Source: Welwitschia mirabilis (lineage: Eukaryota). From it: a stretch of 64,000 nt of DNA. The DNA lies in assembly GCA_051453625.1 (NCBI GenBank), contig JBOZIK010000001.1, positions 6,484,373-6,548,372 on the forward strand, given 5' to 3'. Under the pieces are notes generated by a model. The model was not told the DNA's origin and searched no databases. It was given only the letters and a program-made list of their open reading frames with translations. Below are positions 20,916 through 50,452 of this stretch, piece by piece (within the stretch, counting starts at the first letter, position 1; the number at the start of each line of letters is the position of its first letter). Position numbers and translations under genes: made by a program.

Positions 20916-20945
20916 CATCAAACTGTTTCCTACTACTTACATTGT

Positions 20946-21300: not shown

Positions 21301-21343
21301 GCGAGCGTTTCGTCGGATTCTTGATTCAATTCTTGAGCAAATA

Positions 21344-21533
21344 GAGGGAGCGAAAGAGCAAGGGACGCGGCAGCGCATGGAAGTTTCAGCAGCTTCCGCT
21401 GAATCATAAATCAAAGAATTGGAAGAAATAAAAATTCAAGATTTGCAGAAAAGATTGAAGAATTGAAGAACTGAAGATGAAATGCTTCCGGAAATCCCAT
21501 GCGCTGCCTCTTCCCTGGCTCCTTCTCTCCCTC
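21344..21533 (+). ncRNA. MIR408: MIR408 precursor, copy A (mature ~21499-21519 ATGCGCTGCCTCTTCCCTGGC; star arm ~21359-21380)
   Basis: Mature sequence differs by 1 nt from canonical miR408 ATGCACTGCCTCTTCCCTGGC. Arm 21344-21380 pairs with 21497-21533 over 37 positions with 5 mismatches and no bulges, and an imperfect upper stem continues. Confidence 0.93.
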
Positions 21534-22069
21534 CTTTTTTCCTTTTTGCAATCCCCTACTTTTTTTTTCTTTTTTCCTTTGTTTTTTTTTTTTTTTTTTT
21601 ACTGTTGTTCACCAAACTGCAACTGTAACATTGTGAGCAGATTTGTATGGAAATTGGCGCGTCAAAGCAGATAGATAGCATGTCTGCACCTTTTCCAAGC
21701 TTTCTTCTGCGATTATTTCCTTCAAAGTCTCATAAAAGAAATGGCGTCGTTTGAACAGCCAAATGAAGACCTCCAACGGCCTCTCTACCAAAAGGGAATT
21801 TCTTGGTAAATATATTAATGTTAATCACTCTAGACCTTTGGTTTTACTGTATCCTTTTTACTATGTTTTTCATTTAATAAGTCAATACTAATAACGATAT
21901 TTTATAATTAAAAAAATATTTTTTAAATTAAACTCACAACTACAAGTAGTTATAGAAGCATTGCTCTACCAATAAGATAAGATCTATAATAGTTCTTTAA
22001 GTTTTGATGTGAGAATAATTTCTTTTAATTAATACTAAGCCATATTATGTAATCAAAGTATAGTTTGCT

Positions 22070-25000
22070 CGGAGAGGATGGAGGAACCCTTAAGAGAGAT
22101 AGTGCAAATGTAGCAGCCCAAGGGACAGGAGCAGAAACATCAGATTTTACTACTCCAATCTCAGAATGAAGCTCGGCATGTTAGCTCTCACGTTAAGGAT
22201 GAAGGTTTAAAAGAAAATGATACCCCTTTTAGACCCCAGGATGGATTTTTTAAACAAAAGCAGTGGTTTGTAGTAGATTTTGTTGGATGGTCTCACATGC
22301 AACTTTTAGATCTTAAAGTTCAAAATCTTATAAAAGGTTGGGGTTCTTTTGTTCATTTTAAAGCTTTAGATAATAACAAATAGATTTTTTATTGTAAAGA
22401 TGGGGCCAAATGTTCTCGAACACTAAAAGAAATAGATTTTTTTGGAGTGTTTGATTGGCTTTTTCACCTTAGGGGTCTAAGAGTTTTTCAATGGAATAAA
22501 TCTATTTTTTGAGATTGGAGTGTTTATGGTTTAAACTCTTTGATCTAGATCCAGATCTTTGGATTTCGGATATTCTATTTAAACTTTTAAAGCCTGTTGG
22601 TAGATTGTTCTTTTGGGATATGAATGACTTTTTTAAGGGCCTTAAATGCAAATCACTTAAAGTTTGTTTAGTTTCTAATAAGAAAAAGGATTTCTTTCTA
22701 GAATTGTTTATTAATTGGAAGAGAACTATCAAAAGCTCTTTTGTTGTACCTATCTTTCCTAAAACTTGTTGCACTCCAAAAGAGCTAGGCAAAAAGGAAG
22801 GGTCAGATAAAAATCATAATCCACACTTAGAAAGGCAAGGCTCAAGCAAAAACAACTCTTCAAAGAACAAGTAGATTTTAGCAGTTTCAAAAAAAAAAAT
22901 CCTATTGAAATGGAAGAAGGAATAGATACTATAACTATTAATGTGAATATTTCTATAGAAGATGATTCCAAAATGGAAACTTTAGCATAACACCAAAAAG
23001 ATTCTATTATCTCTTCAAATGCAATGGAGAAATTTTTGAAAATCATGCCAAATCCTCAATAAAGGAAGAATAGGTTATGGAAGGAGTTAAAAAATTTCTT
23101 TGCACAAGAGTAAAAATGAGGGTTTAAAAAGACTAGGCTCAAATAATTAGCATAGTTTAACAGTTAGAAACAAACCCTCTTACAATGGTATAAGGACTAG
23201 GTGTTGTAAATATCAAAGAGAATATTTCTACAGAAGAAGATCCCAAATTGGAAACTATAGCTCAAGCCCAAAAGGAGGTAGCTCACTTTCGGAGAAATCT
23301 AATGTAGTAAATAAATGTTTAGAAGATCTTGTCAAATCCTTAGTAGAAGCTACACAAGGTATAAAAGGAAGAAGATTTTCTTTTTACAAAAGTGAAAGAG
23401 GACCTAGAAGATATTCTTAATGTTCGGGACTTAAATCCTCAAAGATTGTAAACACAGGACAATAACCAAAGATCTAGAAATATCGAAATAATGTGAAACA
23501 AAGACCATCATTTTTTATCCTCCCATATGAACTTAGAAGCTATCATGGAGAAGCCTCATCCTCCAAAAAGATAGGATGCCATGCTCTTAGGGGGAGCTAA
23601 AAAAATGTTGATACTCTTTATTTGTAGGAGACCAAAATAGATGAATCTTCTAGTATTTAGGTTACTAGAAGGATTTATAAAAATGCAGGGTTTTCCCTTA
23701 GGTTAGCTAGTGCTAGATTAGGGGTATCTAGACCATATGGAAGAATTCTTTAGATATCTCTTTTTTTAATCCCTCAGATCATATGTTGATGGTTAATATT
23801 AATCAAGAAAATCCTTGGATACTCATCAGTACCTATAGCCTAGTCATCACAGAAAACAAACTTCAATCATGGAGTAATTTCCCTTAAAAGGTTAACTTGG
23901 CTCTTTTCTTTTTGATTTATGATGATGTTAATAATGTTATTAACTGATGAGAAAAAATAGGAGGTGATACTTGGTAGAACTTGGATACCGAAGTTGTACC
24001 TCAGGGGATTAGAATAGCTAGTCTTATAGGTGTCTTTATTCCCAACTACCCATATACCTGAGATAATATGATAAAATGAATCCAAAGGGCTTATCACAAA
24101 CTAAAGCATTTTACATGATCTCCAAGCTGGCTTCTTTAATTTCAAATTATGCATGCTTAGAAATTAGCTAGAATAATCTTAGATCATTGGCTAATCCTCT
24201 TAACCACAAAGTATAACATGATTAGACCTTCAACAATTTTTAGATGGAAGAAAATTTGGAACAATAATGAAGGGATTACAAAACTTATGCATAATACATG
24301 GAAAATGGAAATACCATGTTGTGCTCAATATAGGCTTTGGTCTAAACTTAGGGCTATTAAAGAAAAACTTCTTAGATTATCTTTCACCAAGAAGAATAGT
24401 TCAAAACCAAAAAAAAAAAAAAACTCAAGAAAAATATCTTTCTTAGTGTTAGTGTGTAAGATTAGATTGAAATAAGTTTGGCGATGAGAGCAATAAACTT
24501 TTTCATTCTTATGCTTCCATTAAACATTTGTGTAGGCATTAAAGGTTTAGAAGGCAAGTGGCCTATTTATCAAAAGGACATTGAAAAGGAAGCACTTAAC
24601 TTTTTCAAGAGCATTCTAAGTGAAGGCACTCTAATTGATAACTGTAAGGTGGATACATTCGTATAAGATCTTAACAGAAAGCTCCATCTAAAACATATTA
24701 AATTAATAAACAAAATGCCCTTAATGGAGGAGGTAAGAAATTTTATCTTCTCAATGTCAAATAATAAATATCCTAGTACAAATGGCTTTCCAACCAAATT
24801 CTTTAAAATTAATTAGGATTTAGTTAAGGAAGATGTTCTCAATATGGTTTTTGAATTTTGGAAATCAATAAGCTCATTAAGGAGCTTAACTACACTTGGA
24901 TCATTCTTATTCTAAAAAAGAGAATGCTAAATCCTTTAAGAAATTTAGACCCATTAGTTTATGTTTAATAGTCTATAAGGTCCTATCAAAATTTCTTGCT

Positions 25001-26865
25001 CTAAGGATTAAAAAGATACCCCAAGTATTATGACTTAAGAAAAAGTAGGATTTTTACAAGGATGTAAAATTGTAGATCAGACTCTTTTAGTTCAAAAAAT
25101 TATTTATTCTACTTCTAAATTAAAAAATCCCAATATTGCTCTCAGGCTAGATATTTTCAAGGCCTATGATAAAATCAGTTAGAACTATATGATAAATGTA
25201 CTTGAAAGGTATGACTTTACTAATCATTGGATTAGTAAACTTGAATATTTTTATACTTCTAGTAATTTTTTATTCTCATCAAGGGTGTCAAAACTACCTC
25301 TTTTGATGCCCTTATGGTCTAAAAGAAGGGGATCCTATTTATGCTTATCTCTTTATTTTACTAAGGAAGGATTTTCTACAAGACTTAGATCTCTTAAGGA
25401 AAAGGGCTTTGTAAAATGTATTACCCTTACTTATGGTTGTGAGGAATATAATTTACCCACTCACAGTTTGTGAATTATATAATGCCCTTTATTGAAGGCA
25501 ACTTATCCTTTATTACTGTTATAAAAATGTTTTTATAGGATGTTTTTCTAAGACTTAGGACTTATACTTAATCTTTACAAGAGTAATTTTTATTGCTTTA
25601 ACATTGAAGATAATGAGGCAAATGTATTTAGTCATATCCTTGAATGTGATATAGACTAGTTTTCTAAAAAATATTTGGGTTTGACTTTGTTTATGAGTAG
25701 GATAAATAATGATATGTTGAGTGATGTGCTAGACAAAGTTCATGAAAGATTAGCTAGTTAGAAAGATTATCTTCTTTCACATGCAGGTAGATTTTAGCTC
25801 ATTAGACCTTGTATTCAAGCTATTCCACTTTATCTTATATTCACTCTAAAAGCTCCTAAATCTATTATTAACTCTCTGGAGAATATAGAAATATCCTTCT
25901 TGAGGGCCTTGATCTTAAAAATTTGTTAGCTATGACCATTACCCTTATGAGTAAGCTCATATGCTAGTTGCATACAAAAAACGAACCTTGAATTTCTGTT
26001 ATGAAGCATATATAGATTCATGGAAATATTTCCTTTTGTCAATTTCAAATGATAGTGGATGTCTCTTCCACTTGATGAGCTTTTCAAAAAAACAAGGATT
26101 GGTTTTGTCAAAGAATAACTCTTAATGCATAGGATTATAGGTGGAATAATCATGACTCAAATAGGATATGCATTTATAATGGGTCATTATGAATGAGATG
26201 AAAAAGCTAGTTTTTTATGTAATAGAGTCTTAACACATGGACATGAATTTTTTGCTTATAAGCTTATAAAAGAAAAACTTTCAACAAAAGATTTTATTTA
26301 TCAGAGGGAAATAATTAGAAATAATGTATGCATTTGTGAATAGATTAAAGAAGACTCTCATCTTTTCCTTCACTTTTCTTTAACCACTTACATTATGAGG
26401 AAACTTAATGATCTTTATATTAGTCTTAGAACTGATAACTCCATTTGGACAATAGTTAGATCTTGAAAACAAAACTCTGACAAATTGAATAATCATGTTT
26501 AAAATGCTTTTATAATCATTCTTCTCTATCATATGTAAAAAAAAAAAATAATCATAAATCTCTCTCTTAGTATATGCTTTTCTCTGCAAATTCTATTTGG
26601 TTTCATACCCTTAATGAATGAAAATACTTAGTTCAAGAATAAGTTTCAAGTGCTGGAATTAATGTTCATAGATCTCAATCCTGTAAGTGATTTGTTTTTT
26701 TCCCCTTCTTTGTTATGTACTATTCTTATTTGTCTTTGATGCTTACTTTTTATTCTTTAGGCTACATGATGCCTCTTTACTAACTTATTCCTTTCAAGCT
26801 GGATCCTGTCGTATGACCTTGTATTATAATATAAGGATTTCTATTTTTTTTCAAAGGGGAAAAAA
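22070..26865 (+). mobile_element. Near full-length degenerate L1-clade LINE
   Basis: ORF1-like region at 22100-23700. RT remnants: GFPTKFFK ~24784, FRPISLC ~24944, LDIFKAYDKIS ~25147, KYLGL ~25669, LSHAGR ~25774. C-terminal Cys/His (zf-RVT-like) remnant ~26325-26372. A-rich end ~26860. Confidence 0.88.
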
Positions 26866-28120
26866 TTATGTTACATGTATTAAAATACACTATTTTTTTG
26901 AATTAATTTTTTTTAAAATTTCATAAAAGATACTATTTGTTTATTAATAACATTTCTTTAGAAGACTACTTTGTGTCTCAATTGAATTTCTAGTTTTCCA
27001 TTTTTAATTTTTATTGACTCATCCATTCTTGAGTATTAATTCTTACATAATATGCCTAATAGGAAGTTTCTAAGAGCATTTGACAGCTCAAAATTCAAAT
27101 TCTAGAAACCATGAAAATTTGATAAATGTTTAAAAATTAGGATTTATGGTGGATGTGACATGACTAATAACATGATTATTGACTTTCTAAAAATAATAGA
27201 TACATCATACATGAAAGGATCTTGCAACCATTTTTTTTCCTTCTCACCTAAGAGACCATCTATCTTACCAGAAGATTTTTAGAGACCTGAAGGTTATTTC
27301 TTTAAAATATATGCAACAAAAACTAGTGATCCTGATGGTCAAAATAAAAAGAAAGTTGTGATTATCTAATATAAAGACATGGTTCCCAACTCTTTGACCA
27401 TTAAAAACCAACCAAAAAATAAAGAGACAAAAAAATTGGAATATGATATCTACCAAATTACATTTAAAAGTCTCATATCTTCCATTCATAAACAAATGAA
27501 TGCTGCTTTCAATCATCTTAATAAATATCATTTTATAAAGTATTAACTTACAAACAAAACTCTTAAATGAATTAATTCACTATAATAAGGAAACCATTTG
27601 CCCTTTGATCTTTTCATTATTCTAATTGAAATTTTTTTACTAAAAATATTTTAAGCTTTTTTCTAATAGTTGAAGTTAAGAAACTAACATAAAAGGTTAT
27701 AATCATTAAAGTTCAGAAACTTGTATTAATGATAGAAGAAAACTACATAATAATCAAATGACTAATTGAACTTTATAATAATAATCACAGTAGAATAATG
27801 GCCAATTAACACAACATAAAATTTATTTTAAGGATAAAGAAGAGTAAAAAGAAGAAGATGCTAAGAGGCATTTAATTAAGCATAATACTAAAGAGTTAAA
27901 TAATAATATACAAGAAAGAATAATAAGAATGGAGACACTATTAATATGGATGAATATGTTTTATCTATTGTGAAAAACATATAGCGAATAACCATGGTTG
28001 TCTAAATAGCCATTGATATGAGGAAGTAAAAGTAATATAGAATAAACTACAGTTAAATTAGAAGCAAAAACATAAGATAGGCTACAATCAAATATATCAT
28101 TGTGACTATATGAAGTCTAG

Positions 28121-31100
28121 TAATTGCTTTATCAAAGCTAAAACCAAATCGTAAACTTATAAAACACCATAAGCCCAATGCAGAATAATATAAAAATAAA
28201 AATAAAACTTTGATATATTTTTTACATGCATAATATGAAACCTAATTAGGTGTTATACATACTTATAGTCTAAACAGAACACAAAAACGATAAGATCATC
28301 CAGGAAATTAAGAGTACTTATGGGCTTTTTTTAGCCTACATAAGTAATTAACACATTTTATCCTTATCAAATAAGGGATTATTTAAGATATCTAAGCAAC
28401 CTATACTTGATCTAGTTATTAGTAGCTAATACTTTTATCAAGTATCTTATTTTTACAGCTAACTTAATTATGACTCAAATATCTAATAACCCATTCCCCT
28501 CTTTGATGGTAACTTCACTAAACTTAGTTATCACATAAATATTTACAATTGAGACATAAATTTCATAAGGAAAAGAAATTCTATTGATGTATTCCATAAC
28601 CCCTCATATAAAATTTTTGTCCATATGCAATATGATAAAGTAATACAAATGACACACTAATGTGGATTTTAACTTAACCTCAACAAACTAAATAAGAATC
28701 TCATCTTTGAGAAGGAATCTCATCTTCATAAATACAATTGTATAAATATTTTCTCCAATGTGAATTTTGAGCTTAATTACTATAATTAAAATTAAGTATC
28801 TTCTCCAAGAATGTGGATTTTACCTCAACTTCTATAAGTGAACCAATCTTACTTTTACTAAGCACTTTTACTTATTGAGATTAATAAGTTTGAGACTCTT
28901 TAGGTACATCCTTCTTATACTCTTCCAAAGCCATAAGAGCATTAAATTTTTTTTACTATTACATCCAATACATCTTGAGCTTAAACTTTATAATTGATTA
29001 AAAAATGATCTACTTTCTTACAATAGAAACATCATTGTTTAGATCAATTTGATTTGGAACCCTTGATTTTAGAAATTAAAGATTTTTCTCCATAATATGA
29101 TCTCCTAGGAAATTTTCACTTTCCACCATTAATATGAAGATTTCGTTTTGAATTTCTGAATTTGTATCATTTGAAGTAAAAACCACACTTACAAAGTATG
29201 CTACCATACTATTTAATAGGATTTCTTTAGCATCATCATCTATAATAACTTGGTTGATGCTAGTGAGTTGAGAATGTATCGAGTGAAATGTATTAATATA
29301 GGAAACAATATTACTCTTACATTCATCTTGAGGCTATAAAGCTAGTGCTTTAGTGATATAGTAGTACAAATAATTTTAGATCCAACAAATTAGTTTAATG
29401 TATTCAATACTTCTTTGGATTTAGAATTTAACTTGATTAAATGAAGATAACGATCAATTATAGCAACCCTAGTAGTGAAACAACCATCTCATCTTTAACC
29501 TTCTAAGCCATCGTTTTATTTGCATCTTGTGACTTATTTTGGTTACTAGAAACATAGCCCTATAAACTTTCCTCAATTAAAATAAATATCTTTTTTTAAT
29601 CAAGTGTGAAAACTTTGGTGTTTAAACTTTTCAACCTTTGATTTTTTTTTTCCATTTTAAAAAATGTTTAAAACACTATGTAAACCCTAGAAAAGCTTAT
29701 GCGCATAGTTTCACAGGATGGAGATGATGAGGTCGATCCATGACATGACTTTTTATTTTTCACATTTTGCTTGAAGGGTTGATAGAAGATAGTGCATTAA
29801 GCTATTTCTAAGGGCTAACTTGATCTTCCTCCCAAATTCTCTCTTTTTTGTTTTTCCAAAAAAAAAGATAGTTAGGTTCACAAACCGAATCTATTATAAA
29901 GAATTACTTGTAAACATAATCCTTTTTTTGCCTTGTTTTAGGAATCAAGAAATTCTTTCTTTATAACATAGATTTATTTATCTTTTTTTTATTTCAATCT
30001 TGATCCCCACACTACCTTTAGTACACTGGCACCAACCATAACCTAGGTATGTGGGATTAATTATTGAAAAAATGAAATAAGACAAAATCTTGGTACTAAG
30101 AAAAAAATGAATGTTAAAATATAAATACTAAAGAAACCTTGCCAAAATACAAAACTCCTTGTAGAATTTATTGCTTGAAATGATTTCAAAGAAAATAAAA
30201 CCATCAAAAAGCAAAATAAAAAAGTAGGGAAAAAAAGGATTAGTGAATAGGGGTTTGTACTAAATGAATTTCCACTACTACAAAATATTGTCTACATTTA
30301 TGGTAGTGACATTTTGAAATCCAAACCACTTAATCAATATATCTTTTAAAAAATAACAAAATCTCTATTTCATATTTTCAAATAAAAATAGACAAGAAGG
30401 TTTTCAAAATGAATAAGCTGGGTAGATTCAAAATGGATGAAGATATTATTAAGACTAAAAGTTATATGCATGTTGTTAATAAACAATGAGTAATAAGATT
30501 AGATGTAAAGGGGAAAAGAGCAAACTACACACACACACACCCACACACACAAACCAACCAAATATTTGTAATATCTACTTGGATTTTTATGCATTAAATT
30601 TGTAATAGAAATCTAAAAATGCATTTTGCTTACTATAACAAGGATCTAAGACCTTAGAAATTTAGTAGTTCTACACTCATCATTATAGTGAATAATTTAA
30701 TTTTAAAAAAACTTTAGTGCAATTAGAGTGTAGTTTCACTAGCATTATTATTTGTGTTTGGATTACTCTCATATCATTTATTGGCTTTAGCAAAAGACAA
30801 AACTAAATAGCAAACCTAAATAACACATTAGGCTTAATTTGAAATAGTTAAAAATGAAAATAAAACTTTATATAGTTTATACATGCATAATATCAAAGTT
30901 GATTAGGTATTTATGCATGCNNNNNNNNNNTAACTCCTAGAAATAAGAGAATCTAAGGAATTAGAAGAAATTATGGGCTTTTGTTAGCCTACGTAACTAA
31001 TTAGCCCATTTAACCTTATCAAATAAGGACTTATTTACAATATTTAATTAACCTTTATTTGATCATCTATTATTAGATAAGATTTATATTAGGTATCTTA

Positions 31101-31138
31101 CTCCACAACTAACTTAATCATCACTTCAATATCCAACA
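28121..31138 (-). mobile_element. 3-kb non-autonomous or internally deleted LTR retrotransposon with both LTRs
   Basis: Diverged ~360-bp direct repeats at 28121-28488 and 30779-31138. Decayed tRNA-Met PBS (actctcatatca at 30765-30776 vs gctctgatacca). PPT at 28489-28506. Flanks tctag/tttag are consistent with a 5-bp TSD. Confidence 0.75.
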
Positions 31139-32528: not shown

Positions 32529-32568
32529 ATGATCAACCATAGAACATTAGTGTTCTATGGTTGATCAT
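32529..32568. repeat. Perfect 18-bp inverted repeat with 4-nt spacer
   Basis: atgatcaaccatagaaca-ttag-tgttctatggttgatcat. Confidence 0.95.
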
Positions 32569-36100: not shown

Positions 36101-39100
36101 TCTAATTTAATGTAAGGAGAATCTCTTCATAATATCCAAATATTACATCAAGGGAAAAAATGATATTTTGATGTCATAACAACAAGACTTTATACATCTT
36201 TGTGCAGAGTCCATACTCAATAAATATACATGGCTAGGAATGTAGTTAAAGCTTTTTGCAACTCTATGATAAGATAAATGCATAACAATGAAATTCAAAC
36301 ACTTAAATGTGTCTTACACTTACAGAAAGTATTGTCCACAACTTATGAAATAGTTTTCTATCCTTCCTAGATGGACTATTTAATTGCTATATGATTATTT
36401 CAAATGATTCTCTCCATAAAAGACAAATAAGTNNNNNNNNNNTATTATATATGAGAATTTCTCATATCATATTAAAACATGTGCGATTTATTTACTTTAT
36501 TATATCATTTCACTATAGTGTTTCTAGTTGTATTCTTATTATTCCTTTCATCTTTATAAATTACTTAAACTCCTCTAAGACATACTAATTATCAATATTA
36601 ATATGTAAAGTTTTAATTGTATGGAAAGAATCATTTTTAACATGACACTTTTAGTATTAAAATTACTTAAAAACTTGAAATTGTACTAAAAATAAAATAT
36701 CTATATTTTTATGAATTCTTCATCAATAAAAGTGAGGAAACATCTGTTACTTCTAAAAATCTCAGTTGGCATTGATGCACATACATTTTTATGAATTCCC
36801 ACTTACTATGGTTATACTATGGCTTTTCTAAATTGTATGTCTTTTAATCTTACTTAGAATAAATTCCTTTCCTTTTAGATTCTTCATCTTCAGGCGCTTC
36901 GAAATTTCTTTGAGATGAAAAATCCTCTTCAATAGAAAATGAACATTTTTATCATGCTAAAGAATAACTGTAAAAGATTTGATGTATTATTTCTTTCTGT
37001 AACCATATAGTAGAATACTTGTTACTCTATACTTGTAAAATGAGTTATTTCTTTCTAGCATGTTAATGCTCTATTATTAAACTACATCTTACTTTTAATT
37101 TAATCCATAATATAGCTTTTTTCCTTCACTTACTTTTTCATTCATTATTATCCTTATAACATTAAAAACTTTTTGAATTAATGTAATTAGAAATATTTTC
37201 TATTTAACTTTTAAGGCATATAAAAAGTATCTTAGCTATAATTTGAGTCTCTAAAGATTTCACAAATACCATTCTAATACCTAGCATTGGTTGTAATTTC
37301 TAAACTACCATTATAATTATGATGTGGATTATTTCATTCTAGTTATAGAAAAAATCTTTTTTTTAAAGTTAAATGATGATCTTCTATGGTATTAATTAAC
37401 CAACATCCTACTGTAGTAACCACAACTGAATTTACATACCTATTTTATCTACATGACCTTTCACAAAAGTTGTTTCATATTGTCATCTCTTAAAAGATTA
37501 CTTATTTAGACTTCATTATTCTTCTCCTCCATAAATCTAATATAGGATTTAGATTCTAGATGACTATTAGAAAAGTTTAGTTTTGATATCATCTCCTCTA
37601 TATAATATGCTTGATCTATCTATTAAAGTTGTCCATATGGAACTTTACACTTAGATGGATAGTAGCCATTCATTTATCATATCATACACTTTATCTATCA
37701 TTTTTACTTCTTTATATATATATATATATATTATTTTGTTTATCTTGTTTCTTAAACTTATTATCTTTTCTATAATTATTGTTCTTTTTCTATCTTATTT
37801 TCTACTATATAGAGAGAATAAGTGGTAATACATATGCATCTTATCCATTTTATTTAGCTTCATATCCTTTAGAAATGATTTTTATGTCAACTAGTCCACA
37901 TCATAATGCACATTAAAATGCACTAAGATCNNNNNNNNNNNNNNNNNNNNNNNNNNNNNNNNNNNNNNNNNNNNNNNNNNNNNNNNNNNNNNNNNNNNNN
38001 NNNNNNNNNNNNNNNNNNNNNNNNNNNNNNNNNNNNNNNNNNNNNNNNNNNNNNNNNNNNNNNNNNNNNNNNNNNNNNNNNNNNNNNNNNNNNNNNNNNN
38101 NNNNNNNNNNNNNNNNNNNNNNNNNNNNNNNNNNNNNNNNNNNNNNNNNNNNNNNNNNNNNNNNNNNNNNNNNNNNNNNNNNNNNNNNNNNNNNNNNNNN
38201 NNNNNNNNNNNNNNNNNNNNNNNNNNNNNNNNNNNNNNNNNNNNNNNNNNNNNNNNNNNNNNNNNNNNNNNNNNNNNNNNNNNNNNNNNNNNNNNNNNNN
38301 NNNNNNNNNNNNNNNNNNNNNNNNNNNNNNNNNNNNNNNNNNNNNNNNNNNNNNNNNNNNNNNNNNNNNNNNNNNNNNNNNNNNNNNNNNNNNNNNNNNN
38401 NNNNNNNNNNNNNNNNNNNNNNNNNNNNNNNNNNNNNNNNNNNNNNNNNNNNNNNNNNNNNNNNNNNNNNNNNNNNNNNNNNNNNNNNNNNNNNNNNNNN
38501 NNNNNNNNNNNNNNNNNNNNNNNNNNNNNNNNNNNNNNNNNNNNNNNNNNNNNNNNNNNNNNNNNNNNNNNNNNNNNNNNNNNNNNNNNNNNNNNNNNNN
38601 NNNNNNNNNNNNNNNNNNNNNNNNNNNNNNNNNNNNNNNNNNNNNNNNNNNNNNNNNNNNNNNNNNNNNNNNNNNNNNNNNNNNNNNNNNNNNNNNNNNN
38701 NNNNNNNNNNNNNNNNNNNCATAATCTTTAATTTTCCATTATTAATAGTGTTGTAATAATTTTATCATAGTTTGATACTACCTAAGCACTTTAATTAGAA
38801 ATAGCCATGTAATGTAGTATATTCTATAGTCTATGTCGAGGCTCTTCTTGATCCCTTAAATATTATTAAAAATCTCAAATGCCTTCACTCTCTTCATGTG
38901 AATATTATTCGTATGACTTAGGTAAACTTCACGTCTAATTTCTTAATACAGCTTATATTAAACATTTTTTCAATCTTATATGTAGATGTATACTTATTCA
39001 CCGCTTAATTATGATATTTATTTATGATCAAGAGAAATGAAGAAGATAAAATTTTAGTAAGGATTTCCATTTTAAAATTTCTTCATTACCTACTGTTGAA
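33200..39100 (-). mobile_element. Degenerate Ty1/copia retrotransposon (spans an N gap; limits approximate)
   Basis: Minus-strand remnants in copia order: gag knuckle-like ~37880-37910, integrase FLTFIDE ~36720-36742, EQITFKKAM ~35622-35650, HQLD..AL-like ~35300-35332, YISDM (YVDD-like) ~34889-34904. Confidence 0.7.
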
Positions 39101-39549
39101 AGTTAAATATTGTTCTTTTCTATATGACTTATGTACACTTGCTTAGATTAGCTAAAAATATGAATCTATCATATTATCAACCCCCATATAACTACCATCT
39201 AACATGATATCAACATTTATCTAGAAATTAATTAAAGTTGTCACTAGTTACTAAAGGTTTGTGTTAATGTTGGATGCATTAAATTCACTTGAGTTCATTC
39301 TTTTAAGTTATTAGAATTAGTGAGTACTATAGAAAACCTCTTATCTCAAGTAGGGAAAAAGTTACATTATGTCTAAATTATTTTAGATCTACCTTTTTGG
39401 CCTTTTATAGCTTACATAATTATCAAGTACTAATTCATAATTGAAACAACTTGCATAATGAATTTTAAGCTATTTGGCATGATAGAATACCAATCAAAAT
39501 AAAAGAAAGTAAGATTGGAAAAATTCACATGTATTAATTGACTAATAAT

Positions 39550-39600
39550 TTTCTAGGAGGTCACCCATCTGAGTACTACTTCAAAGAAAGTATTCTTAAT
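39550..39600 (-). pseudogene. 5S rRNA-derived fragment (internal Pol III promoter region), Cassandra-like or 5S pseudogene
   Basis: ttctaggaggtcacccatctgagtactact...aag....cttaa matches the reverse complement of plant 5S rRNA (TTCCCAGGAGGTCACCCATCCTAGTACTACT...AAGCACGCTTAA). Both 5S ends are absent. Confidence 0.8.
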
Positions 39601-41579
39601 CATAGATATTTTTACTTATTTAATGCTTTTAGGTTTAAATAAAACTTATGTATATAATAAAACCCAATAAATTTCTTACAATGAATTATCTCATTTGTTT
39701 CCTTGGATTTTCTCCTAGCATTCAACCTCATCCTAGGCATCCAACTTATTAAGTTCAATAGTGGTATTTTTAGTGAAAACAATTTCAATAAATCAAATTT
39801 TTTGCTTTACCAAATTATTAATTTATAATAGTTTAATCAACCATGAAAAATTAGCAAATCATTTTTTCCAAAATGTTTGTAAGATAATTATAATAAGCTA
39901 AAATATCAAGAATTTTATGCATATTTCTAGGTTTATTAAAAATGATATTATAGAAGTAGATGTATATAGTTCTTGATCATTAGAAATAAATCCTTAAAGA
40001 TGTAAAATTAGTTAATTAAACATAAACCAGAAACATCAAGTACAAGGATACTAAATTTGTTTCAATTAGTCTTCAATCAATCTTTGACACACATGCATAC
40101 ATAGATTAGACTAGTAATCTTCCTTTATTTAAGGTTCTAGAATCTATGTAGTCTAATAATGTTAATCCTAATCTTAACCATTTGTCATTTTTCTTTCACA
40201 CAATATAAATAAATTTTCTCAAAGCCTCTTCATTATATAATTCTACTAATCCCTTAAGTTATAATAATAAATAATAAATATTATTTACTCTATAAATCTC
40301 TAGCCCCTTTTACCTAATTATAACTTTAATTAATAAAGCATCTAGTTAAATACCATTTTAGCCCTTTGGCAAATTGATTTCCTATTAATACAACGTACAT
40401 AAATGAAACATAAATAGCATTCATAATTATATCCTCATAAAAATAACAACTAATATGTTTCAAACACTTAAATAAGATGCCAAGTACCAAATAGATCCTT
40501 GGATCATTCAAATTTATAAATAAATGACTAAAAAATCACTCAAGAACATATGGCTTACCCTTGTTTTCCTCCTTTTATATCTAAATACTTACCCTTAAAC
40601 TGATATAAACTTATAGCTTTTTGATTGATCTAAGAAAAACCTTAAGATAGTATACTTTGAAGATAACATATTGATAAATGCATCCTTTTTTAGGAAAGGA
40701 AAAAATTCCTAAAAGTAAATAAGAGTAAATTATTTAAGGTCTTAAATAATTAATGCAAACAAAATTAACTAAATAAATCATATTTATCACCATGACCAAT
40801 ACCCCTACTAATAATTATGCTAAAAGTGTTTGGATGACAAAAAGAAATTTCATTAAACATTTTTAAAATATTTTTAATTAGACAAATATACTAGAAATAA
40901 TGTGAAAGAAGAATAAGTGGATACAATTAATAATACAAGCATTTATAACATTCCTATTAAGTCTCTACATGCTTAAATATTTATATTAGACATTTGCCTT
41001 CATAAAAAACTGTACTCATCATTTTATTATGCAATTATTTTTTATAATAACTCTTCCTCTTTTTTTAAATATATATTACATTATAACGCAATCACATAAT
41101 CATAAGGATATAGTATCATTCAGAGTCAGCAGTTATGATGTATAGTCCCTTATTTAAAATTTGGAATTACATTATAATGTTCACATACTTTTATTAAACA
41201 AGGGCATAAATAGAGATAGATATGCAAATTCCAAATGTTTCATCATACAAAGAGTACTTTTTTGTTAATGAAACCATTATTATTAATTATAACATTAAAA
41301 AGGTTACATATTATTAACTTTAACAAGAAGAATAAGATTATCATATTGTTATTCAAATACTAGTTTATATAATTAATACATATAATAACACCAAGTACAA
41401 GTTAAAAAACAAGATCTGAGTTAGATAAGGATGTCAAAAGTTGGGGTATAATTTCTTAATAGAAGTATTTTAAAATTTAAAATATTATATTTTAAATTTT
41501 TTTGGCGGAGAGGCTAATCCCCAGCCACTGATATATCCAGGACAACATTATGTTTTTTTTAATAAAATAATTTTTAACA

Positions 41580-42080
41580 TTAAAATTATATTTTTAGTTA
41601 AAAACAAATAACTAAAATTATATTTTTAGTTAAAAACAAATAACTAACTTTTAAAATGGTAAACCTATTAAAATGATCAGCTTATAAATTTTGAAATGAT
41701 AAACCTATTAACTTTTAAAACAGTAAACATAATCAATTTTAAAAAGGAAAACCTAAAAAACCTAAAAATATCTTCAGTTTAAAAAAAAAAAAGGAAGTAA
41801 TTTTTTATTTTAAAGCCATATTAAAATTATAATTTTAGTTAAAAAACCAAAAAAAAACAATTTTTAAAATGGGAAACCAATTTTTGGGCCACAATAAATT
41901 TATATCTTTAGGTTAAAAACAAAAAAATGGCAAACCTAGTTATGGAACCATACTAAAATTATATCTTTGGTTAAAAAACAAAAAATCAAATTTTGAAATG
42001 ACAAACCTAGTTTAGTGGTCATAATAAAATTATATCTTTAGTTAAAAACAAAAAAATAATTTTTGAAACATTAAACCTAA
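41580..42080. repeat. Subterminal imperfect minisatellite at the Helitron left end
   Basis: Recurrent aaaattatat(c/t)tttagttaaaaacaaa and aaatg(g/a)(t/c)aaaccta units. Confidence 0.8.
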
Positions 42081-45000
42081 ACTAATGGAGCCTTATTCAC
42101 CCTATAAAACAAGGCCCAGGGTAGCACATGCAATCGAAATGCAATCAATAAGAATTTATGTTTTCAAAAGTAAAGTTGCTCTGAAGATTTCACTGTGTAT
42201 AAGTGAAATTTACTCTAAAGAAGTGGAATTTACTTTAAAGAAGTGGAATTCTCTCCCTCTAAAGGTATGCTCCTTTTTTCAAGTCATTCTTTTTTTTTAT
42301 GTTTTGATAATGAAAATTGAAATGTACTGTGATCTAATCATTATAGATACTCTGCTTAATGGTCATGTTTACTTCAAGATTTTTAAAAATATTGAAATAT
42401 AAATTTAGAGTTTTTATACTTTTACTTTGAAAATTATTTTTGATATTAATGTTTATTTTCCTTTGGCCATTTTGACATGAATAATAGGAAAAACTCTAAA
42501 CTAAAACTAAAATATTACTTTTTTTATGGTGATTTAAAAAATTCTAATAAAGAGAATAATATTTATGATACAAGTNNNNNNNNNNNNNNNNNNNNNNNNN
42601 NNNNNNNNNNNNNNNNNNNNNNNNNNNNNNNNNNNNNNNNNNNNNNNNNNNNNNNNNNNNNNNNNNNNNNNNNNNNNNNNNNNNNNNNNNNNNNNNNNNN
42701 NNNNNNNNNNNNNNNNNNNNTTAAAAAATAAATGGAAAATGTATAATAGAGAAAATAATAATAATAAATTTTAAATTACTTACATCTTGTAAATTTTTTT
42801 TTATTTTTATATTTTTTTAAACTATAGGCTTTTAAATAGTTAAGTTTTTAAAAAATTTAATAATAATATATTCTTATTTTAGATTAGATTTTCTTTTTAT
42901 TTATATTAAACTTTTTAATGTTAAGTTTTTCAAATTATTTTTTATAGATCAAGTCTTTTTAATAAAATTAAGTCTTTTAAATTATGTCATTTTAAATAAT
43001 TATTTTAAATTGAGGTCTTTTTTAAGTTAGTGTTTTAAATTAAGTTTTCTTTTCTTTATTTTAGTATTTTTTAAATTAAACTTGTTTTTTAAAATTTAAT
43101 TTCTTTAAATCATGTTTTTTAATAAATCTTTTGTAAATTAAGTTTTTCATAAAATAAGTTTTTTAGAAATTTAATTTCTTAACTTAAATTTCTTTTAATA
43201 GTATTCTTAAATTAGATTTTTATACAAATGAATTCTTATAAAATTAATGTTTTTCTTCTTTTCCATAGGTTTTTTAAACATAATTTTTAAAAAGTTTTTT
43301 AGATTTAGTTCATTCTTTCAATTACGTTTACTTTTAAATATAGTTTTCCTCTTCCTTTTTTGTTTCTTTAGAATGAAATCTAAGATGGAACATCAGTGAG
43401 CTCTTAATCATGAAAGGCAAATAATATATCATGAGAGGTAAAGACTTTTAAGAGAAACTTCTCACTTAGAAAACTCTTTAAACATATGTAGTAAGTTATG
43501 ATAATGATAAAAAAGGTATGAGTTAATTTTGTTTATAGCTTTACTACTTTTTTAAAACTAGGTTTGTAACAAAGTCACTGTTTTTTATGTTCATAAATAA
43601 CACGTAAAATGTAGCTCTTCAACATTGTACTACATCATCTAGTATACATTACAACACTTGATTGATCATACAATGCAAGAACTAAATCAACAAATGGAAT
43701 AAATGCCTATAAAAAATAACCCCCTTAGTAGGAGTCAATGAATAGTCAGTAAATAATGGTATAACATATACAAGTTACATGTCTAACACATAGTGTTCTT
43801 TATCATTAACCAAAAGACATGAATATGTAAAGTGACAGAAAGAGATTATGGGAGAGGATGTTTATCATAACCAACAATCACACTTATAGAGAGAACGTCA
43901 AAAAAAAAAAAAAGTCTATTGCAATAATATCGATGTCATATCTCCTCTACAAGAATGTTTGAGCAAACATTGGATCAACCTTCATATCCTAACTTACAAA
44001 AACATAATGGTGATATATCTAAATGAATTGATACATTTTGGAGAGAAATATAAGTATTTACACAATCAAGATTATGCATAGCTTGTAATAAGATGTATCA
44101 ATCTATAGAGTTGGTATAAGATAGACATGGCCCTCCCTGTAGACGGTGTCAATATGGAAAAAAAGAAAAGGAAGATATCATAGCTGCTGATGAAGAAATT
44201 AGATTTTTCTTGTTCTAAATGACATGATCTAAGGCCTCAATTATTTCTTTTATCCCATCTTACATAGGTTGAAGCAACACAGAATTTAAGAATAAATCCA
44301 TTGCTTTAAGTTACACATGCAACTAGTGGTTAACTACTATATTAAGGGCACATAATAAGCTTTTCATAAGATGTGTCACATATTGCAAGGGTTTTGTCCT
44401 ATAAAATTACACAAATACCCATTCTTCTTTTAAAGAGAAGGGATTAAATCAATATAGAATATAATTTTATTATAACTAAGATGCGAGTTTATCATGCCTT
44501 ATGCTTTAAGAATGAGAATGATCCTTTCTATTAAGGTATTGATATAGATATGCATGCCTTAGATGAAATTAGTCATGATGAAGATGTTAATGTCTTTTAT
44601 ATGCTTCGAGACATTACTCTTAGTGAAAAGGAAGGGGAAATAAAGCTACATTTTAATGGCTTAATTCTAGAAACAAAAGAGTCTGACATTATTCATCACA
44701 CATTCTTAGTTACCACACAATGTCCTTGACTTAAAAAAGAAATTGATGCTATAAAGAACTGACTGCAAAACTCATATGATGATCCATCAATAAGTGCTCA
44801 ATGGCCATTACTAAAAAAGGCATTGGTTAATAAGTTTAACACTAGAGATATGCTATCAATTTTATTTCCTTTAGTGTTTCCTACAAGTAAGTGTGATATT
44901 TTCGCACTAAGAGCTAAGGATGTTAAGCTACATAAGTTTGCAAAGCATCTTTTAAAATACAAAGATGGAAGATTTGATCATCATCCAACATTTCAGTAAG

Positions 45001-45985
45001 CACCTCTTCATTTGTTTTATTCTTTAATAAATTTAATAGAACAAATTTTAAACCCTTTTAAAATTATTTTTTATTTTAGGTATTCTGTATTCAACATGAT
45101 TATGAGACATAAGGCGCTTAGGTCTATAATAACGTTTTTCAAAAAGGATAGAATTGATGCCACAATCATGATAGAACAATTACATGAATAAATGAACAGT
45201 TATCTATTGAAAGAAATAATAGACAACTTAATGAGATATGAAGCTCTCTAAGAGGCACACGTTCCTACTAGAAAGAAGAAGCAAATGTAAACTATTAGAT
45301 ATGGATACCCATCTTGGAACTCTTATAATATTCTTTAGTTTAAGTGTTGCATATTTATATTAGCCTGACATACATGATACCATGTCTGGTGAACAACCAC
45401 AATAGACCTCTAAAGCTAGACAATGGCAATTGTAAAACATCATTGAGAACTCACACATTATCTCAGAGTACATGTACAACCATCATAAAAGATTTAGAGA
45501 GGTAATTCTAATAAAGGAATTTAATGTTGTAGACTATTAAATATAATTTGAGGGCAACATAGAGGTTCTTTACATGTATAGGGATTTCTATGAATAAAGG
45601 GAGCTCCCAACATTAAAAAACTTAACTAGAGTGATGATACAATAATGATAATTACTAAGAGATTTTTTTATTCCATTTTAGATGTATGGAATGATAGATT
45701 TAATGAGTGTGAAAGACTCAATGTGTAAGTAAAAAATTGTATCTTCTTTATTACACATTTAGTTATTAATACAATTTTAGTTTTTATAATAATTTTTACT
45801 TCTACAGGCCTCAAAAAGAAACATGGATCTTCATCCATGTAAATTACAAATTAAGGATCTTAAACATATGCAACTAGGGCAAGATTTCACAACCTTATTA
45901 AATAGTATTCATAGACATATAGTTTGTAATCTAAGAGCATGTTTGAGAAAACGAAATGGTTGACAACCTTGTTAAATAGTGTAGG

Positions 45986-46110
45986 TATCCACATACTACT
46001 ACACTTTTAACACTATAAATATCTTCAAATTATAGATACTAATGCTTATCCACATACTACTACACTTTTAACACTATAAATATCTTTAAATTATAGATAC
46101 TAATGCTTAT
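45986..46110. repeat. 61-bp tandem duplication inside a predicted Helitron intron
   Basis: tatccacatactactacacttttaacactataaatatctt(c/t)aaattatagatactaatgct occurs twice with 1 mismatch, starting just after the donor at 45985. Confidence 0.9.
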
Positions 46111-49057
46111 TATAAATATAATACTCTGTGGGAGTTACGACCTTACGATTTTAGGTTGTATATAAATGAAAATAATGAGAAAAAGTATGAGAAAATAAGA
46201 AATGATGATAGGTTAAATGTTCATAATATAATAATTCTACAAACATGATGAGTAAATATAGACTTTCAACCTATCCTTGATAAATATGTTATTATACAAT
46301 ATATTACAAAGTATGCCTCAAAGTCAGAGAAAAATTAAGTGCCATATTTACATGCATTAATGAAGGTATCACAAGATAGAGATCTTAATAAGCCTACCAT
46401 TTCAGCTTACAAAAGGCTAATGATGGATACTGCAGCAGATCCTAATACTAAAGATATAGAAACATGCCACATGTTACAGGGACTTTTCTTGGTTGAAAGT
46501 AGTATGGTATATGTACCACTTAATGTATCTAAGGAGGTCTACAAAGACGTGAGACAAAACCATGTTATAGATGAAGAACGTGTGCATACCATGTTAGTAG
46601 ATTAATATCCAAATAGACCACTGCATATGGAAGGCATTTCATTATTTAATTATGTAAAATATTATGTATTCAATTCAAGGAAAATATGAGATGATGCTTT
46701 GCATTCTACAAAGGAAGATATAATTATCAGATCTATTCCTAGATTTCATATGCGACTCGACAGAGATGATGACAAATGGATGGCTTATCGTTGAGCTCAA
46801 ATACTTCTTCATTATCTATTTAGAGATATCAAATGTGATTTGGAAACAAAGATGAAGAAAATAGAAGCTAAATGGATCTCTGTTACACATATGTATGAGC
46901 AGTGTAATCCATCATATGATAAGGATTTCGAATGCGCAATCATCGAGGAGGATCAACAAGAAGACATGAAGCCATCACATATGGAACTTGTGAAAATGAT
47001 TATCCAGTATTAATGAGACATCTACTAAATGAAGGCATTCTTTAAAGAATTGAACAAATCATGCTTATCTTGTGTGATCTTAATAGACAATGTAATTGGT
47101 AGGTAAACTATAAAGGAGAGGACTATCTAAAAATATGTCATTTTCTTTATTTAGAGTAATAGGACATCATATAATTTATTGATCCAAGATGAAATGAATG
47201 AAATTATTAGCCTATCTAACCTTGGTTTAAAATTAAAAAAAAAATTGCTTCAACATACTCATATCTCATTTGGTGCTATAAGAATTCTAGTAAGAAGACA
47301 TCCAACCTATATGCATGATAATCTAAGGAATAGCAAGATTAGGAAAATCTTTTCTCATTCATGCTAAAAGAAATGAATTTAAGAATATGTGTTCAAATAA
47401 CATAGGTATTTTTATGGTGCTAGCATCCACTGGAATCACATCATACAACATCAAGGGGACAATAATAAATTCAACATTGGGTATTAAGATCAGTGAATAT
47501 GAGCCTGCTTCATCAAGATAGTTGCTACATCTTCAAGAACGGCTAAAAAATATCAAGTACATCATGTTTGATGAGATGAGTTAAATGTTAAATAATATCT
47601 ATAGAGGGCTTAAATAAATATTTCCAACTCACTAATACATGAGTTTTGGTGTAAGGTCTATCATATTAATAAGTGATCTTGCTCAGTTACCTCCGCTGAA
47701 GGATTGTCCACCGTATAATGCTAGTGAAGAAATGAAGGCACTATAGAGATCATTTGATACAATTATTATGTTAGATACAATCTATAAATAAAAGGGTAAT
47801 AGTCCAAATCGGCAAAGGTTTCGAAATGTTTTGATGGATGTAAGAGATAATAAAGTATTAGACAATGATTATGAATGATAAGGTTTGAACTTCCTTCCAT
47901 GTACAATGGAATGGATGGCTTCCAAGATTTAGTTCATCTGTTTGCCATGAATGATATGGTTTCTTCACATAACAGAAAGTGCTTGCTTCAAATGCAATCA
48001 CCCCTTACATGATGTATGACATACAAGACATGAGATTCAGTTAGATGTGATGATGCTAATGGTGAACTGAAAATAGAGCTTTTTCTTTGTCAAGGAGCTA
48101 CGGTCATGTTGACTATGAACATATGTGTGCAGCTGGATTAGTAAATAGATCTATGAATATTGTTAAATCAATAGTTTATTGGCCACAAAAGAATTCACTT
48201 GATTTTCCAACCTATGTCATGGTTAACTTCGATATCCACACTAAAATTCCTTTCGATGAATCAAGTCGAAAAACAGTTTCCATCATCTTATTCTCTAGAG
48301 ATTGAGCAAAACAACCATCTCTCAAACTTGTATGGACATTAACAATTCATACATCTTAGGGGATAAACCTTAGTAAAGCATATATAGACATTAGTCCCAA
48401 GTGAATGCTAGAATTGAATTTTGTGGCACTTTCTTGAGTGAAGTTCATGGATTCATTGAAGATATTACATCTCTTCTCTAAATAAAGATAGAGAAAATTA
48501 TCCAAGAGTTCTAACTTGGAGAAACGGATTAAGGAAGAGCAACGTTTAGCAAGCCTAAAAGTCTGCAGTACATTGTCTTTTAACAATTCGTCAATTCATG
48601 TATAATGTACATTTGTATCAAGTGATATAAAATAAATTATTATTGATTTCTAGCAATTACATATTACTAATTTATCTATACTACATGTTTATATTGTTCT
48701 TAATTACCTTCATTGTAATATTTAAATACCTTTATTATTCTTTATTAGCTTCATTGTAATAAAGTAATACTTACATCTCTAAAAACTTTATGAGCATTTC
48801 CTTCCCTCTATTTATTTCTTTTTCTTGTTTATGCATTTTAAATATCAAAAAGAGATATCAACACACACTTAAATCATTACTAATTGTTTTCTACATTAAG
48901 ATTATGTGTTTAAATAACATGTTTAATAAAACTGTTTACAAATAAGGCATTTCTATAAAGGCCTTACTAATTAAAGCAACTATGACTAGTGAAATTAATT
49001 CTATAAGAGACTTAATGATTAATGCACTTATAACTATTAATCAGTGACAGGTGACCA

Positions 49058-49519
49058 TTAAGCTAGATATATATTTCATATACATCTGTAATTTGGCTAA
49101 GAGATATCAATCTCTACTGCCTTTCAAATGAGGCTACAAGCATTAACCTAAATAAATTTTGCTTACACATTGGAGTTGACTATAACCACATTCAAAGTTA
49201 ACTTTGCCTTCAGTCAATGTTGACTTTTATCACTTGGTCAATGTTGACCATTAACCAAAATTCAATACTTCGTCCTCAGCTAAAATTTTCCTGCTATCAG
49301 CCAAAATTTCCCTTAAAAAAATTTGGTCAAGAATAATGCATTGACTTCTAATGAATAGTCAACATTAACCAAATGATAAAGTCAACATTGAATGTGGTTA
49401 TAGTCAACACCAACGTGTAGNNNNNNNNNNGGCTAATGCTTGTACCTCTTCTGAAAGGCCATAGAGATTGATATCTCTCAGCCAAATTATAGATGTATAT
49501 AAAATATACATCTAAATTA
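49058..49519. mobile_element. ~460-bp foldback / long-TIR MITE-like element
   Basis: Left arm tagatatatatttcatatacatctgtaatttggctaagagatatcaatctct...gttgactataaccacattcaa is an imperfect reverse complement of the right arm over ~200 bp. Internal tcaatgttgac repeats. A 10-N gap lies in the right arm. Confidence 0.8.
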
Positions 49520-49989
49520 GTTAATAAAAATAGTTAAGAATTGGATGTACTAATCTCTTGGAGCGAAAAATATGAACTATAACATATTAAAAAATCAAAA
49601 CATATTATGGGCCTTTTGAAAAAGGGATGAACTTCAAAATTTTAGTGTTTTTCAAATTTTACTGATTGTACCTCCCATTAATAAGTACAACCACTACACT
49701 AACCCAAATAAATGATTTAGTTATATTATGGCCATTTCCAAATTTTTATCTCCACAAGACATTTAAAGGTTCAAACCTACAATCCCTCATATAACCCATT
49801 GGCTAAGTTTTTCTATGATTTCTTCAACAAATTAAATTGACACATTATTTAATCAATAAACTACACGTATACACCTAAAGTATCTAGTCATCCTCAATTA
49901 AAATTATTATTTCCATTTTGTCAAATTTTAAGCTTCTAACCGTTCACCTCTTCACTTAACGCTCTTTCTCACGTTAACACTAGCCATTA

Positions 49990-50200
49990 ACGTACGTAAC
50001 TCAGTCCTAGAAGCACAGTTTGACAAAGCGTCTCGTATGGCGCTTTGCGCGTTGTACTACACTTCACTTGCAGTACTCTATCAGACAAACGCTCGGCACT
50101 CAGTTGCAGTACAAGATCTCTTATACGGCGTCTCAACAGCATCGCAGAAGCAATTCTCTTCTCTCTCTATATAACGCAACGCCACTTCCATTCTCAATCA
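49990..50200 (+). promoter_or_regulatory. MIR408 copy B promoter: GTAC (CuRE/SPL7-type) cluster and TATA box
   Basis: GTAC at 49992 (inside ACGTACGT), 50054, 50073 and 50109. TATATAA at 50168. Confidence 0.8.
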
Positions 50201-50242
50201 CAATCTCAGTTCAACTGTCACTTCTTCAGCAGAAGCGAACAC

Positions 50243-50452
50243 AGGGAGCGAAGGAGCAAGGGATGCGGCAGCGCATGGAAGCTTCAGTAGCTTACGGCGA
50301 TCGGTGACAGATCAACGCACATAACTCAAAGGAATGAAAGAAATGAAAGATGTAAGGAGGGAAGATTTGCAGATAAGATTGAAGAATGAAGGATTACAGA
50401 TGAAATGCTTCTGAAACTCCCATGCGCTGCCTCTTCCCTGGCTCCTCCTCCT
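50243..50452 (+). ncRNA. MIR408: MIR408 precursor, copy B (mature ~50422-50442 ATGCGCTGCCTCTTCCCTGGC; star arm ~50257-50278)
   Basis: Same mature sequence as copy A. 5' arm aggagcaagggatgcggcagcgcatggaagcttcagtagc pairs with 3' arm gcttctgaaactcccatgcgctgcctcttccctggctcct. Confidence 0.93.

Follow-up and report, generated by a model that had tools for sequence, protein, structure and literature searches.

Two MIR408 loci of Welwitschia mirabilis share a G at nucleotide 5 of the mature strand and a pairing C on the star arm

Two MIR408 hairpins on one strand

The window analysed here, a 64,000-nucleotide (nt) stretch of Welwitschia mirabilis DNA (contig JBOZIK010000001.1, positions 6,484,373 to 6,548,372), contains two hairpins of the microRNA (miRNA) family MIR408, called copy 1 and copy 2 below. 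A reading made beforehand from the letters of the window (the sequence-only reading) had proposed that they are paralogues with a non-canonical mature sequence. When both strands of the window were searched, the exact 21-mer ATGCGCTGCCTCTTCCCTGGC occurred at 21499-21519 and 50422-50442, both on the + strand, against 0 expected; no other match at up to 2 mismatches was present on either strand, and a match was obtained in 0/100 shuffles. The mature sequence lies on the 3' arm and equals canonical miR408, as given in Table 1 of PMC9695887 and Table 1 of PMC3236769, at 20/21 bases. A regional Rfam search matched both loci to RF00690 (MIR408) over model positions 1-126/126, with 45 bits (E 2.8e-10) at 21340-21538 for copy 1 and 41.2 bits (E 4.1e-9) at 50239-50461 for copy 2. 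In a scan of the whole window with 4227 families, the two MIR408 hairpins ranked top, with E-values of 5e-8 and 7.6e-7. The proposal of two MIR408 paralogues was thus borne out by full-length matches that are the top hits of the window, and the G at nt 5 of the mature sequence (G5) was confirmed in both hairpins, at 21503 and 50426. We regard the loci as two functional, anciently duplicated MIR408 genes that lie about 29 kb apart on the same strand, with a probability of roughly 0.8. The parts of the two hairpins are listed below.

21340-21538, + strand: copy 1 MIR408 hairpin (Rfam RF00690, fold)
21360-21380, + strand: copy 1 miR408-5p (star) as predicted from the fold and the geometry of 2-nt 3' overhangs, AAGGGACGCGGCAGCGCATGG; its C at 21374 faces G5
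21499-21519, + strand: copy 1 miR408-3p variant, with G at 21503 (sequence, Rfam, RNA)
50239-50461, + strand: copy 2 MIR408 hairpin (Rfam RF00690, fold)
50258-50278, + strand: copy 2 miR408-5p (star), predicted, its C at 50272 facing G5 (alignment, duplex prediction)
50422-50442, + strand: copy 2 miR408-3p variant, with G at 50426 (sequence, Rfam)

The hairpins are 199 nt (copy 1) and 223 nt (copy 2) long, and their arms are 118 nt and 143 nt apart. Copy 1 folds at -74.1 kcal/mol (z -5.2) and copy 2 at -75.9 kcal/mol (z -3.7), and shuffles folding equally well numbered 0/200 in each case. The fold common to both copies comprises 46 pairs, and its columns 39 and 194 hold the star C paired with G5. 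The opposite arms read gcagCgcatgg in both copies, with the C at 21374 and 50272, and this C pairs with G5 in the predicted folds of both, exactly as the sequence-only reading had described. The star of copy 2 differs from that of copy 1 at one base, a T for a C at a CpG. In the predicted duplex, nt 1-10 of the 3p strand are all paired; mismatches occur at nt 11, 13 and 19 of this strand, all 3 symmetric, and there is no bulge. The criteria of Axtell and Meyers from 2018 are said to allow a foldback of up to 300 nt and a duplex with up to 5 mismatched positions, of which up to 3 may lie in asymmetric bulges; hairpins of 199 and 223 nt with 3 symmetric mismatches and no bulge fall within these limits. 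In the processing that we propose, DCL1 would cut from base to loop, above a lower stem of about 14 bp, and dicing would release a 20/21-nt miR408-3p, (A)UGCGCUGCCUCUUCCCUGGC, together with its 5p partner.

Two further candidates were rejected. A match to MIR2118 on the - strand (34.8 bits vs a gathering score of 85) was taken as a hairpin-shape artefact, and the one metagenome match to the variant 20-mer (L001) lies in GC-rich DNA that by eye looks like bacterial coding sequence and has no Rfam match, so that it was put down to chance.

Transcript, promoters and divergence of the two copies

Public runs were aligned to 20700-23200, namely X10, X21 and X22 (RNA, from two studies) and X8 (DNA, from a second organism). 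X10 yielded 1 contig among 160,973 records read, X21 yielded 38 reads from about 26% of the run, and X22 yielded 15 reads from about 24%. The X10 contig of 851 nt is spliced and joins 21295-21804 to 22063-22408; the raw RNA reads of X21 and X22 span 21288-21875 and cover both exons seen in X10. The splice joint 21804>22063 is supported by the X10 contig and by reads of X21 (5) and X22 (2), and 3 reads of X21 carry the joint 21804>22058, to an alternative acceptor 5 nt away at 22058. Once the cut is shifted by 1 base, the intron occupies 21806-22063 and has GT..AG ends, which fixes the + strand as that of the copy 1 transcript. Copy 1 is a spliced RNA polymerase II (Pol II) transcript of the + strand, with the hairpin in exon 1, and is present in RNA from two independent studies. 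The transcript features, and the matching donor site of copy 2, are as follows.

21295-21805, + strand: exon 1 of the copy 1 primary transcript (pri-miR408), containing the hairpin (X10 contig, X21 and X22 reads)
21806-22063 (alternative end 22058), + strand: copy 1 intron, GT..AG (splice joints in X21, X22 and X10)
22064-22631, + strand: copy 1 exon 2, 3' end undefined (X10 contig to 22408, X21 depth to the bin 22548-22631)
50753-50758, + strand: copy 2 conserved 5' splice site GTAAGT, a predicted site aligned with the donor used by copy 1

The same RNA also reports on the two variant positions. Raw reads showing A at 21503 had been named as an observation that would count against the G, and the RNA of X10 and X21 shows G: at a 5% threshold no alternative letter was found at 21503 or 21374 in the X10 contig (depth 34.8) or in X21 (depth about 7), while X22, with a depth of about 2 over the mature site, has no power for a base call there. 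The DNA contigs of X8, drawn from 57% of the run with a filter applied, leave 21036-21623 uncovered and are uninformative on the hairpin of this relative. In exon 2 of copy 1, the assembly and the RNA differ at two positions. At 22124 a G>A change was seen in 7/7 reads of X21, 4/4 reads of X22 and the X10 contig, and at 22266 a G>A change was seen in 5/5 reads of X21 and the X10 contig. These differences reflect either polymorphism between individuals or an assembly error, and editing would be indistinguishable from them without DNA of the same plant.

Upstream of both hairpins lie TATA boxes preceded by clusters of the tetramer GTAC.

21199-21234, + strand: copy 1 promoter, with GTAC cores at 21199, 21212 and 21229 and the 11-mer TTGCAGTACAA at 21224-21234 (motif scan)
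21270-21275, + strand: copy 1 TATA box; the X10 RNA contig begins about 25 nt further downstream, at 21295 (sequence, aligned with the copy 2 TATA box)
50054-50114, + strand: copy 2 promoter, with GTAC cores at 50054, 50073 and 50109 and TTGCAGTACAA at 50104-50114 (motif scan)
50170-50175, + strand: copy 2 TATA box (sequence, alignment with copy 1)

GTAC is a 4-mer, and all SBP-domain factors bind it. In both copies three GTAC cores stand within about 100 bp upstream of the TATA box, and the 11-mer is common to both promoters. At least 3 GTAC per 150 bp occur at only 5 places in the 64 kb (0.65% of 150-bp windows), two of which are the MIR408 promoters; another of the five, 16804-17100, has neither a CpG island nor an RNA-family match and is probably due to chance or a repeat. 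Passages of PMC8430956 describe a copper response element to which CRR1/SPL7 bind and whose core is GTAC; passages there and in PMC10958043 have SPL7/CRR1 binding GTAC and driving miR408, and a passage of the latter reports GTAC enrichment in the proximal MIR408 promoter of rice and Arabidopsis. The GTAC density upstream of both TATA boxes resembles that of the SPL7/CRR1 copper-microRNA regulon (miR397, miR398, miR408, miR857), as outlined in parts of PMC8430956 and PMC10958043, with the difference that here the resemblance is one of motifs. The sequence-only reading had placed both hairpins in a duplicated copper-homeostasis module. The GTAC clusters at both promoters are as this idea would predict, and both copies possess, at the motif level, the GTAC elements of a copper- or SPL7-type promoter, so that both genes may respond to copper.

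The window as a whole is AT-rich and poor in CpG, with a GC content of 27.5%, a CpG observed/expected ratio (o/e) of 0.20, a GpC o/e of 0.97, and a median CpG o/e of 0.12 over 500-bp windows. In contrast to this median, the CpG o/e of copy 1 and copy 2 is 1.02 and 1.45 in the promoter, 0.87 and 0.70 in exon 1, and 0.72 and 0.64 in the hairpin, respectively. When 500-bp windows were ranked by CpG o/e, the MIR408 loci accounted for 11 of the top 15; of the other 4, 3 are artefacts beside a run of N and 1 has only 6 CpGs. The MIR408 loci are the only CpG islands of the window, and both look like live genes. It had been argued beforehand that G5, which creates a CpG in DNA that otherwise loses CpG, is maintained by selection. 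The premise stood in part: the window is CpG-poor and the mutational direction is right, since a change of A to G opposes the decay of CpG to CpA and the G is not a deamination product. The argument itself carries little, because the hairpins lie within CpG islands (o/e 0.64-1.45 vs the median of 0.12) in which CpG is not being lost, and a retained CpG is weak evidence of selection. We picture each gene as transcribed by Pol II from a CpG-island promoter that has a TATA box and a cluster of GTAC copper-response cores, with a long-looped hairpin in exon 1 followed by an intron.

Comparison of the two copies showed a sharp contrast between the stems and their surroundings. The mature strand is identical at 21/21 bases and the star at 20/21, the 5' lower stem at 13/14 and the 3' lower stem at 10/14, and the loop at 94/117 aligned bases with 27 gap columns. 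Identity in the leader, the stretch after the hairpin and the rest of exon 1 is about 48-64%, which is about the level obtained by forced alignment of unrelated AT-rich DNA and thus denotes saturation. These values confirm that loops and flanks have diverged by many indels, as had been noted from the letters. When the window was compared with itself, similarity between the two loci was confined to the hairpin and a block some 100 nt downstream of it; a forced alignment added the TATA box (21270 and 50170), a CTTCCATTC element near the transcription start site and the 5' splice site. As the flanks are saturated, the duplication must be old, and the stems, part of the loop, the downstream block and the splice donor appear to have been held by selection. 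Stems conserved against saturated flanks fit purifying selection, and this part of the earlier claim of maintenance by selection holds, whereas its appeal to CpG retention is weak; the 21/21 identity of the mature strand against saturated flanks would be the better evidence of constraint.

21615-21710, + strand: copy 1 conserved block downstream of the hairpin, in exon 1 (77% BLAST identity, 70/92 aligned bases)
50568-50659, + strand: copy 2 conserved downstream block (BLAST, alignment with copy 1)

The downstream block contains GATTTGTATGGA..TTGGCGCGT.AAAGC and CCTTTTCCAAG..TTCTTCTGC, in surroundings of about 50% identity. A weak common hairpin is predicted in it (-11.2 kcal/mol), in which 2/24 pairs are changed on both sides. 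A conserved peptide was considered for this part of exon 1 and rejected: an ATG at 21651, in the block, meets a stop after 5 codons in copy 2, and an ATG at 21741 is unaligned in copy 2. The 3' half of the loop (21430-21498 and 50353-50421) is also unusually conserved, with exact 12-base runs AAGATTTGCAGA and AAGATTGAAGAA separated by one substitution and followed by GATGAAATGCTTC, and it may help to determine how these long-looped precursors are processed.

Nucleotide 5, target pairing and alternative explanations

The loci resemble canonical MIR408 (RF00690), with its mature sequence (A)UGCACUGCCUCUUCCCUGGC, in the full-length hairpin, the mature strand on the 3' arm, the 20/21 bases, the lower stem of about 14 bp, the flanking CCC...GGCUCC context, the GTAC-rich promoter and the 5' A as in the 21-nt form of Arabidopsis. 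They differ from it in G5, in the C on the 5p arm, in the G:C pair at a column that is unpaired in the consensus, in much longer loops (insertions of 65 to 135 nt) and in being two tandem copies 29 kb apart. The Rfam consensus has an upper-case A at nt 5 of the mature strand, and this column and the opposite 5p column are unpaired. In the four soybean precursors shown in Table 1 of PMC9695887, the base opposite A5 is A (3/4) or G (1/4), giving a mismatch in 4/4. Instead of an invariant A5 opposite an unpaired base, both copies have a G (21503, 50426) paired with a C (21374, 50272). The lost A5 is a departure within the MIR408 family and gives no ground to exclude the loci from it. The sequence-only reading had spoken of a matching star base. 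The C does pair with G5, but no existing pair has been preserved, since the canonical family has a mismatch there; the G:C pair is newly created. As G5 and the star C are present in both copies, both changes most likely predate the duplication. The change of A5 to G together with the opposite C would turn the family mismatch into a G:C pair and lengthen the uninterrupted helix that starts from the 5' end of the 3p strand to 10 pairs. The predicted duplex energies of the two copies are -29.9 and -30.3 kcal/mol, vs -26.0 kcal/mol for soybean, or about 4 kcal/mol more stable.

The literature was searched for this variant in the full text of about 8.4 million papers and preprints. None of its forms (17- to 20-mers, in RNA or DNA letters, on both strands, and the star arm) was found in this collection, where 114 papers print the canonical 20-mer; the collection likewise yielded no version with U or C at the nt 5 position, and no paper discussing a G5 variant turned up in the search. 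A passage of PMC8745667 describes miR408-3p as essentially invariant across land plants except for the end bases, and Pan et al., in the form in which they are cited, have the mature sequence unchanged in moss, angiosperm and gymnosperm apart from 5' nucleotides. In a part of PMC9695887, 351 mature miR408 sequences from 118 plants, pooled from miRBase and sRNAanno, are reported to vary at the 5th base. Some variant of the 5th base is thus already catalogued and the novelty of G5 is unproven; the G5 variant itself may already be present in a database without comment.

Canonical miR408 targets the copper proteins plantacyanin, uclacyanin and laccase. Duplex energies with target sites were computed for idealised perfect sites. 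On a canonical U-site, the variant, pairing through a G:U wobble, reaches -44.2 kcal/mol vs -44.6 kcal/mol for canonical miR408, and on a C-site the variant reaches -46.1 kcal/mol vs -40.7 kcal/mol for canonical miR408. These values suggest that G5 is nearly neutral on canonical U-sites and adds C-sites. Since the G:U pair retains nearly full idealised stability, co-evolution of the targets is not needed to keep the module working. G5 would pair with U or C, so that canonical copper-protein sites would still be repressed through G:U and a C at that position would be tolerated or favoured. In our model a conserved regulator has most likely drifted in a permissive, nearly neutral way at nt 5 and has not been rewired, and the variant miR408 presumably keeps copper-protein transcripts among its targets.

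Several points weigh against reading these loci as working MIR408 genes whose change was nearly neutral. The RF00690 scores of 45 and 41.2 bits are below the family gathering score of 64 bits, which is an operational cut-off and not a biological feature, and a scan of the window at Rfam gathering thresholds listed nothing, the MIR408 matches appearing only at E-value thresholds; the low scores stem from the loops, which exceed the model by insertions of 65 to 135 nt. RF00690 is matched on the - strand as well, with 39.4 and 35.7 bits, lower than on the + strand, as expected of hairpins. The RNA libraries appear unstranded, with similar depth in both first-mate directions, and the strand of copy 1 follows from the GT..AG intron and the family match. 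Expression was observed for copy 1 and is presumed for copy 2; precise dicing, the 5' end of the mature strand and the dominant arm are likewise predicted. The site energies given above refer to perfect idealised sites, not real targets. Lastly, the 5'-terminal stretch of the 3p strand pairs at -10.1 kcal/mol vs -4.2 kcal/mol in soybean, which could shift loading toward 5p. An asymmetry rule governs strand selection, and by this rule the more stable 5' end would favour the 3p strand less than in the canonical duplex. Such a change in arm balance would matter because miR408-5p has its own targets in rice, according to a part of PMC10958043.

The foremost alternative to nearly neutral drift is an adaptive rewiring, in which G5 and the closed mismatch were selected, co-evolving target sites changed to C or GGCAGCGCA sites were newly acquired, and strand choice or AGO sorting changed. 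Two substitutions at exactly opposite positions make a Watson-Crick pair at a column that is unpaired in the consensus, and G5 and the star C have been kept in both old paralogues. On a C-site the variant gains about 1.9 kcal/mol and canonical miR408 loses about 3.9 kcal/mol, the arm-balance change could matter given the rice miR408-5p targets reported in part of PMC10958043, and the canonical 20-mer is widely printed, with no G, U or C version found. These observations would be expected of rewiring, but the nearly full stability on U-sites through G:U makes co-evolution unnecessary. Moreover, the 5p arm varies across plants, with half of its bases described as different in the portion of PMC9695887 that treats it, so that a star C is not improbable by drift. 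We therefore consider rewiring doubtful.

Gene conversion or recent copying between the paralogues would mean that the shared G and C are not ancestral and that the two copies count as one observation. The copies are only 29 kb apart on the same strand, and their identity is highest in the arms and parts of the loop (94/117 aligned bases), as conversion might leave it. The conservation is patchy, however, with the arms, part of the loop, the downstream block and the splice donor separated by stretches of about 50% identity with many indels, which indicates selection on elements and not a contiguous conversion tract, and the star arms differ at one base. This makes conversion quite improbable.

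Decay of one or both hairpins into relics without a working miRNA, the G being a tolerated lesion, is more improbable still. It might account for the Rfam scores below the gathering score and for the unusually long loops of 118 nt and 143 nt. Against it, the stems are intact, with the mature strand identical at 21/21 and the star at 20/21 bases despite saturated flanks; the promoters of both copies form CpG islands, against a window median o/e of 0.12; RNA of two studies shows copy 1 transcribed and spliced; and the TATA box, the GTAC cluster and the 5' splice site have been kept in both copies. A sequencing or assembly error or an individual polymorphism as the origin of the G is already largely refuted and has a negligible chance of being right, for although the differences at 22124 and 22266 show that the assembled individual or consensus is not identical to the RNA samples, the same G occurs in two diverged paralogues and also in RNA of two independent studies (X10 at depth 34.8, X21 at about 7), with no other letter at 5%.

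Surroundings of the loci and meaning of the variant

Outside the MIR408 loci, the 64 kb looks like eroded, gene-free DNA. The 20 stop-to-stop open reading frames of at least 90 amino acids in the window comprise 7 artefacts of N runs and others of low complexity, none of them convincing; the window scan detected no transfer RNA and no other convincing Rfam match. Seven runs of N are present, the largest at 37931-38719. Dispersed or tandem repeats were seen as the pairs 28126-28486/30784-31136 and 5876-6127/7939-8169 and at 41581-42079, 45986-46110 and 17617-17788; they include pairs that are 72-73% identical, a 64-bp unit with 98% identity and a cluster of units of about 60-160 bp around 41.6-42.1 kb, and are probably remains of old transposons or satellites.

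Sub-families that differ by one or a few bases are familiar from miR165/166, miR156/157 and miR159/319. The MIR408 loci described here are like them in having a fixed substitution in a deeply conserved mature miRNA on paralogous loci, and unlike them in that the variants of those sub-families coexist with the canonical form and are widespread, whereas here only the variant is found, in the two loci of the window.

If G5 is only drift tolerated through G:U, as we think most likely, the finding would amount to a small annotation note, useful for miRNA pipelines that demand exact canonical matches. If the target sites had moved to C or new GGCAGCGCA sites had arisen, and loading had shifted to miR408-5p or another AGO, this would be a case of coupled co-evolution of miRNA, star and target in an ancient module, an outcome to which we give only a small chance. 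A fixed internal change in two old paralogues, seen in RNA, offers a natural experiment on a tolerated seed-region change in an ancient miRNA-target module, on whether target sites follow their miRNA, and on the purpose of the conserved mismatch at nt 5, be it strand choice or AGO sorting.

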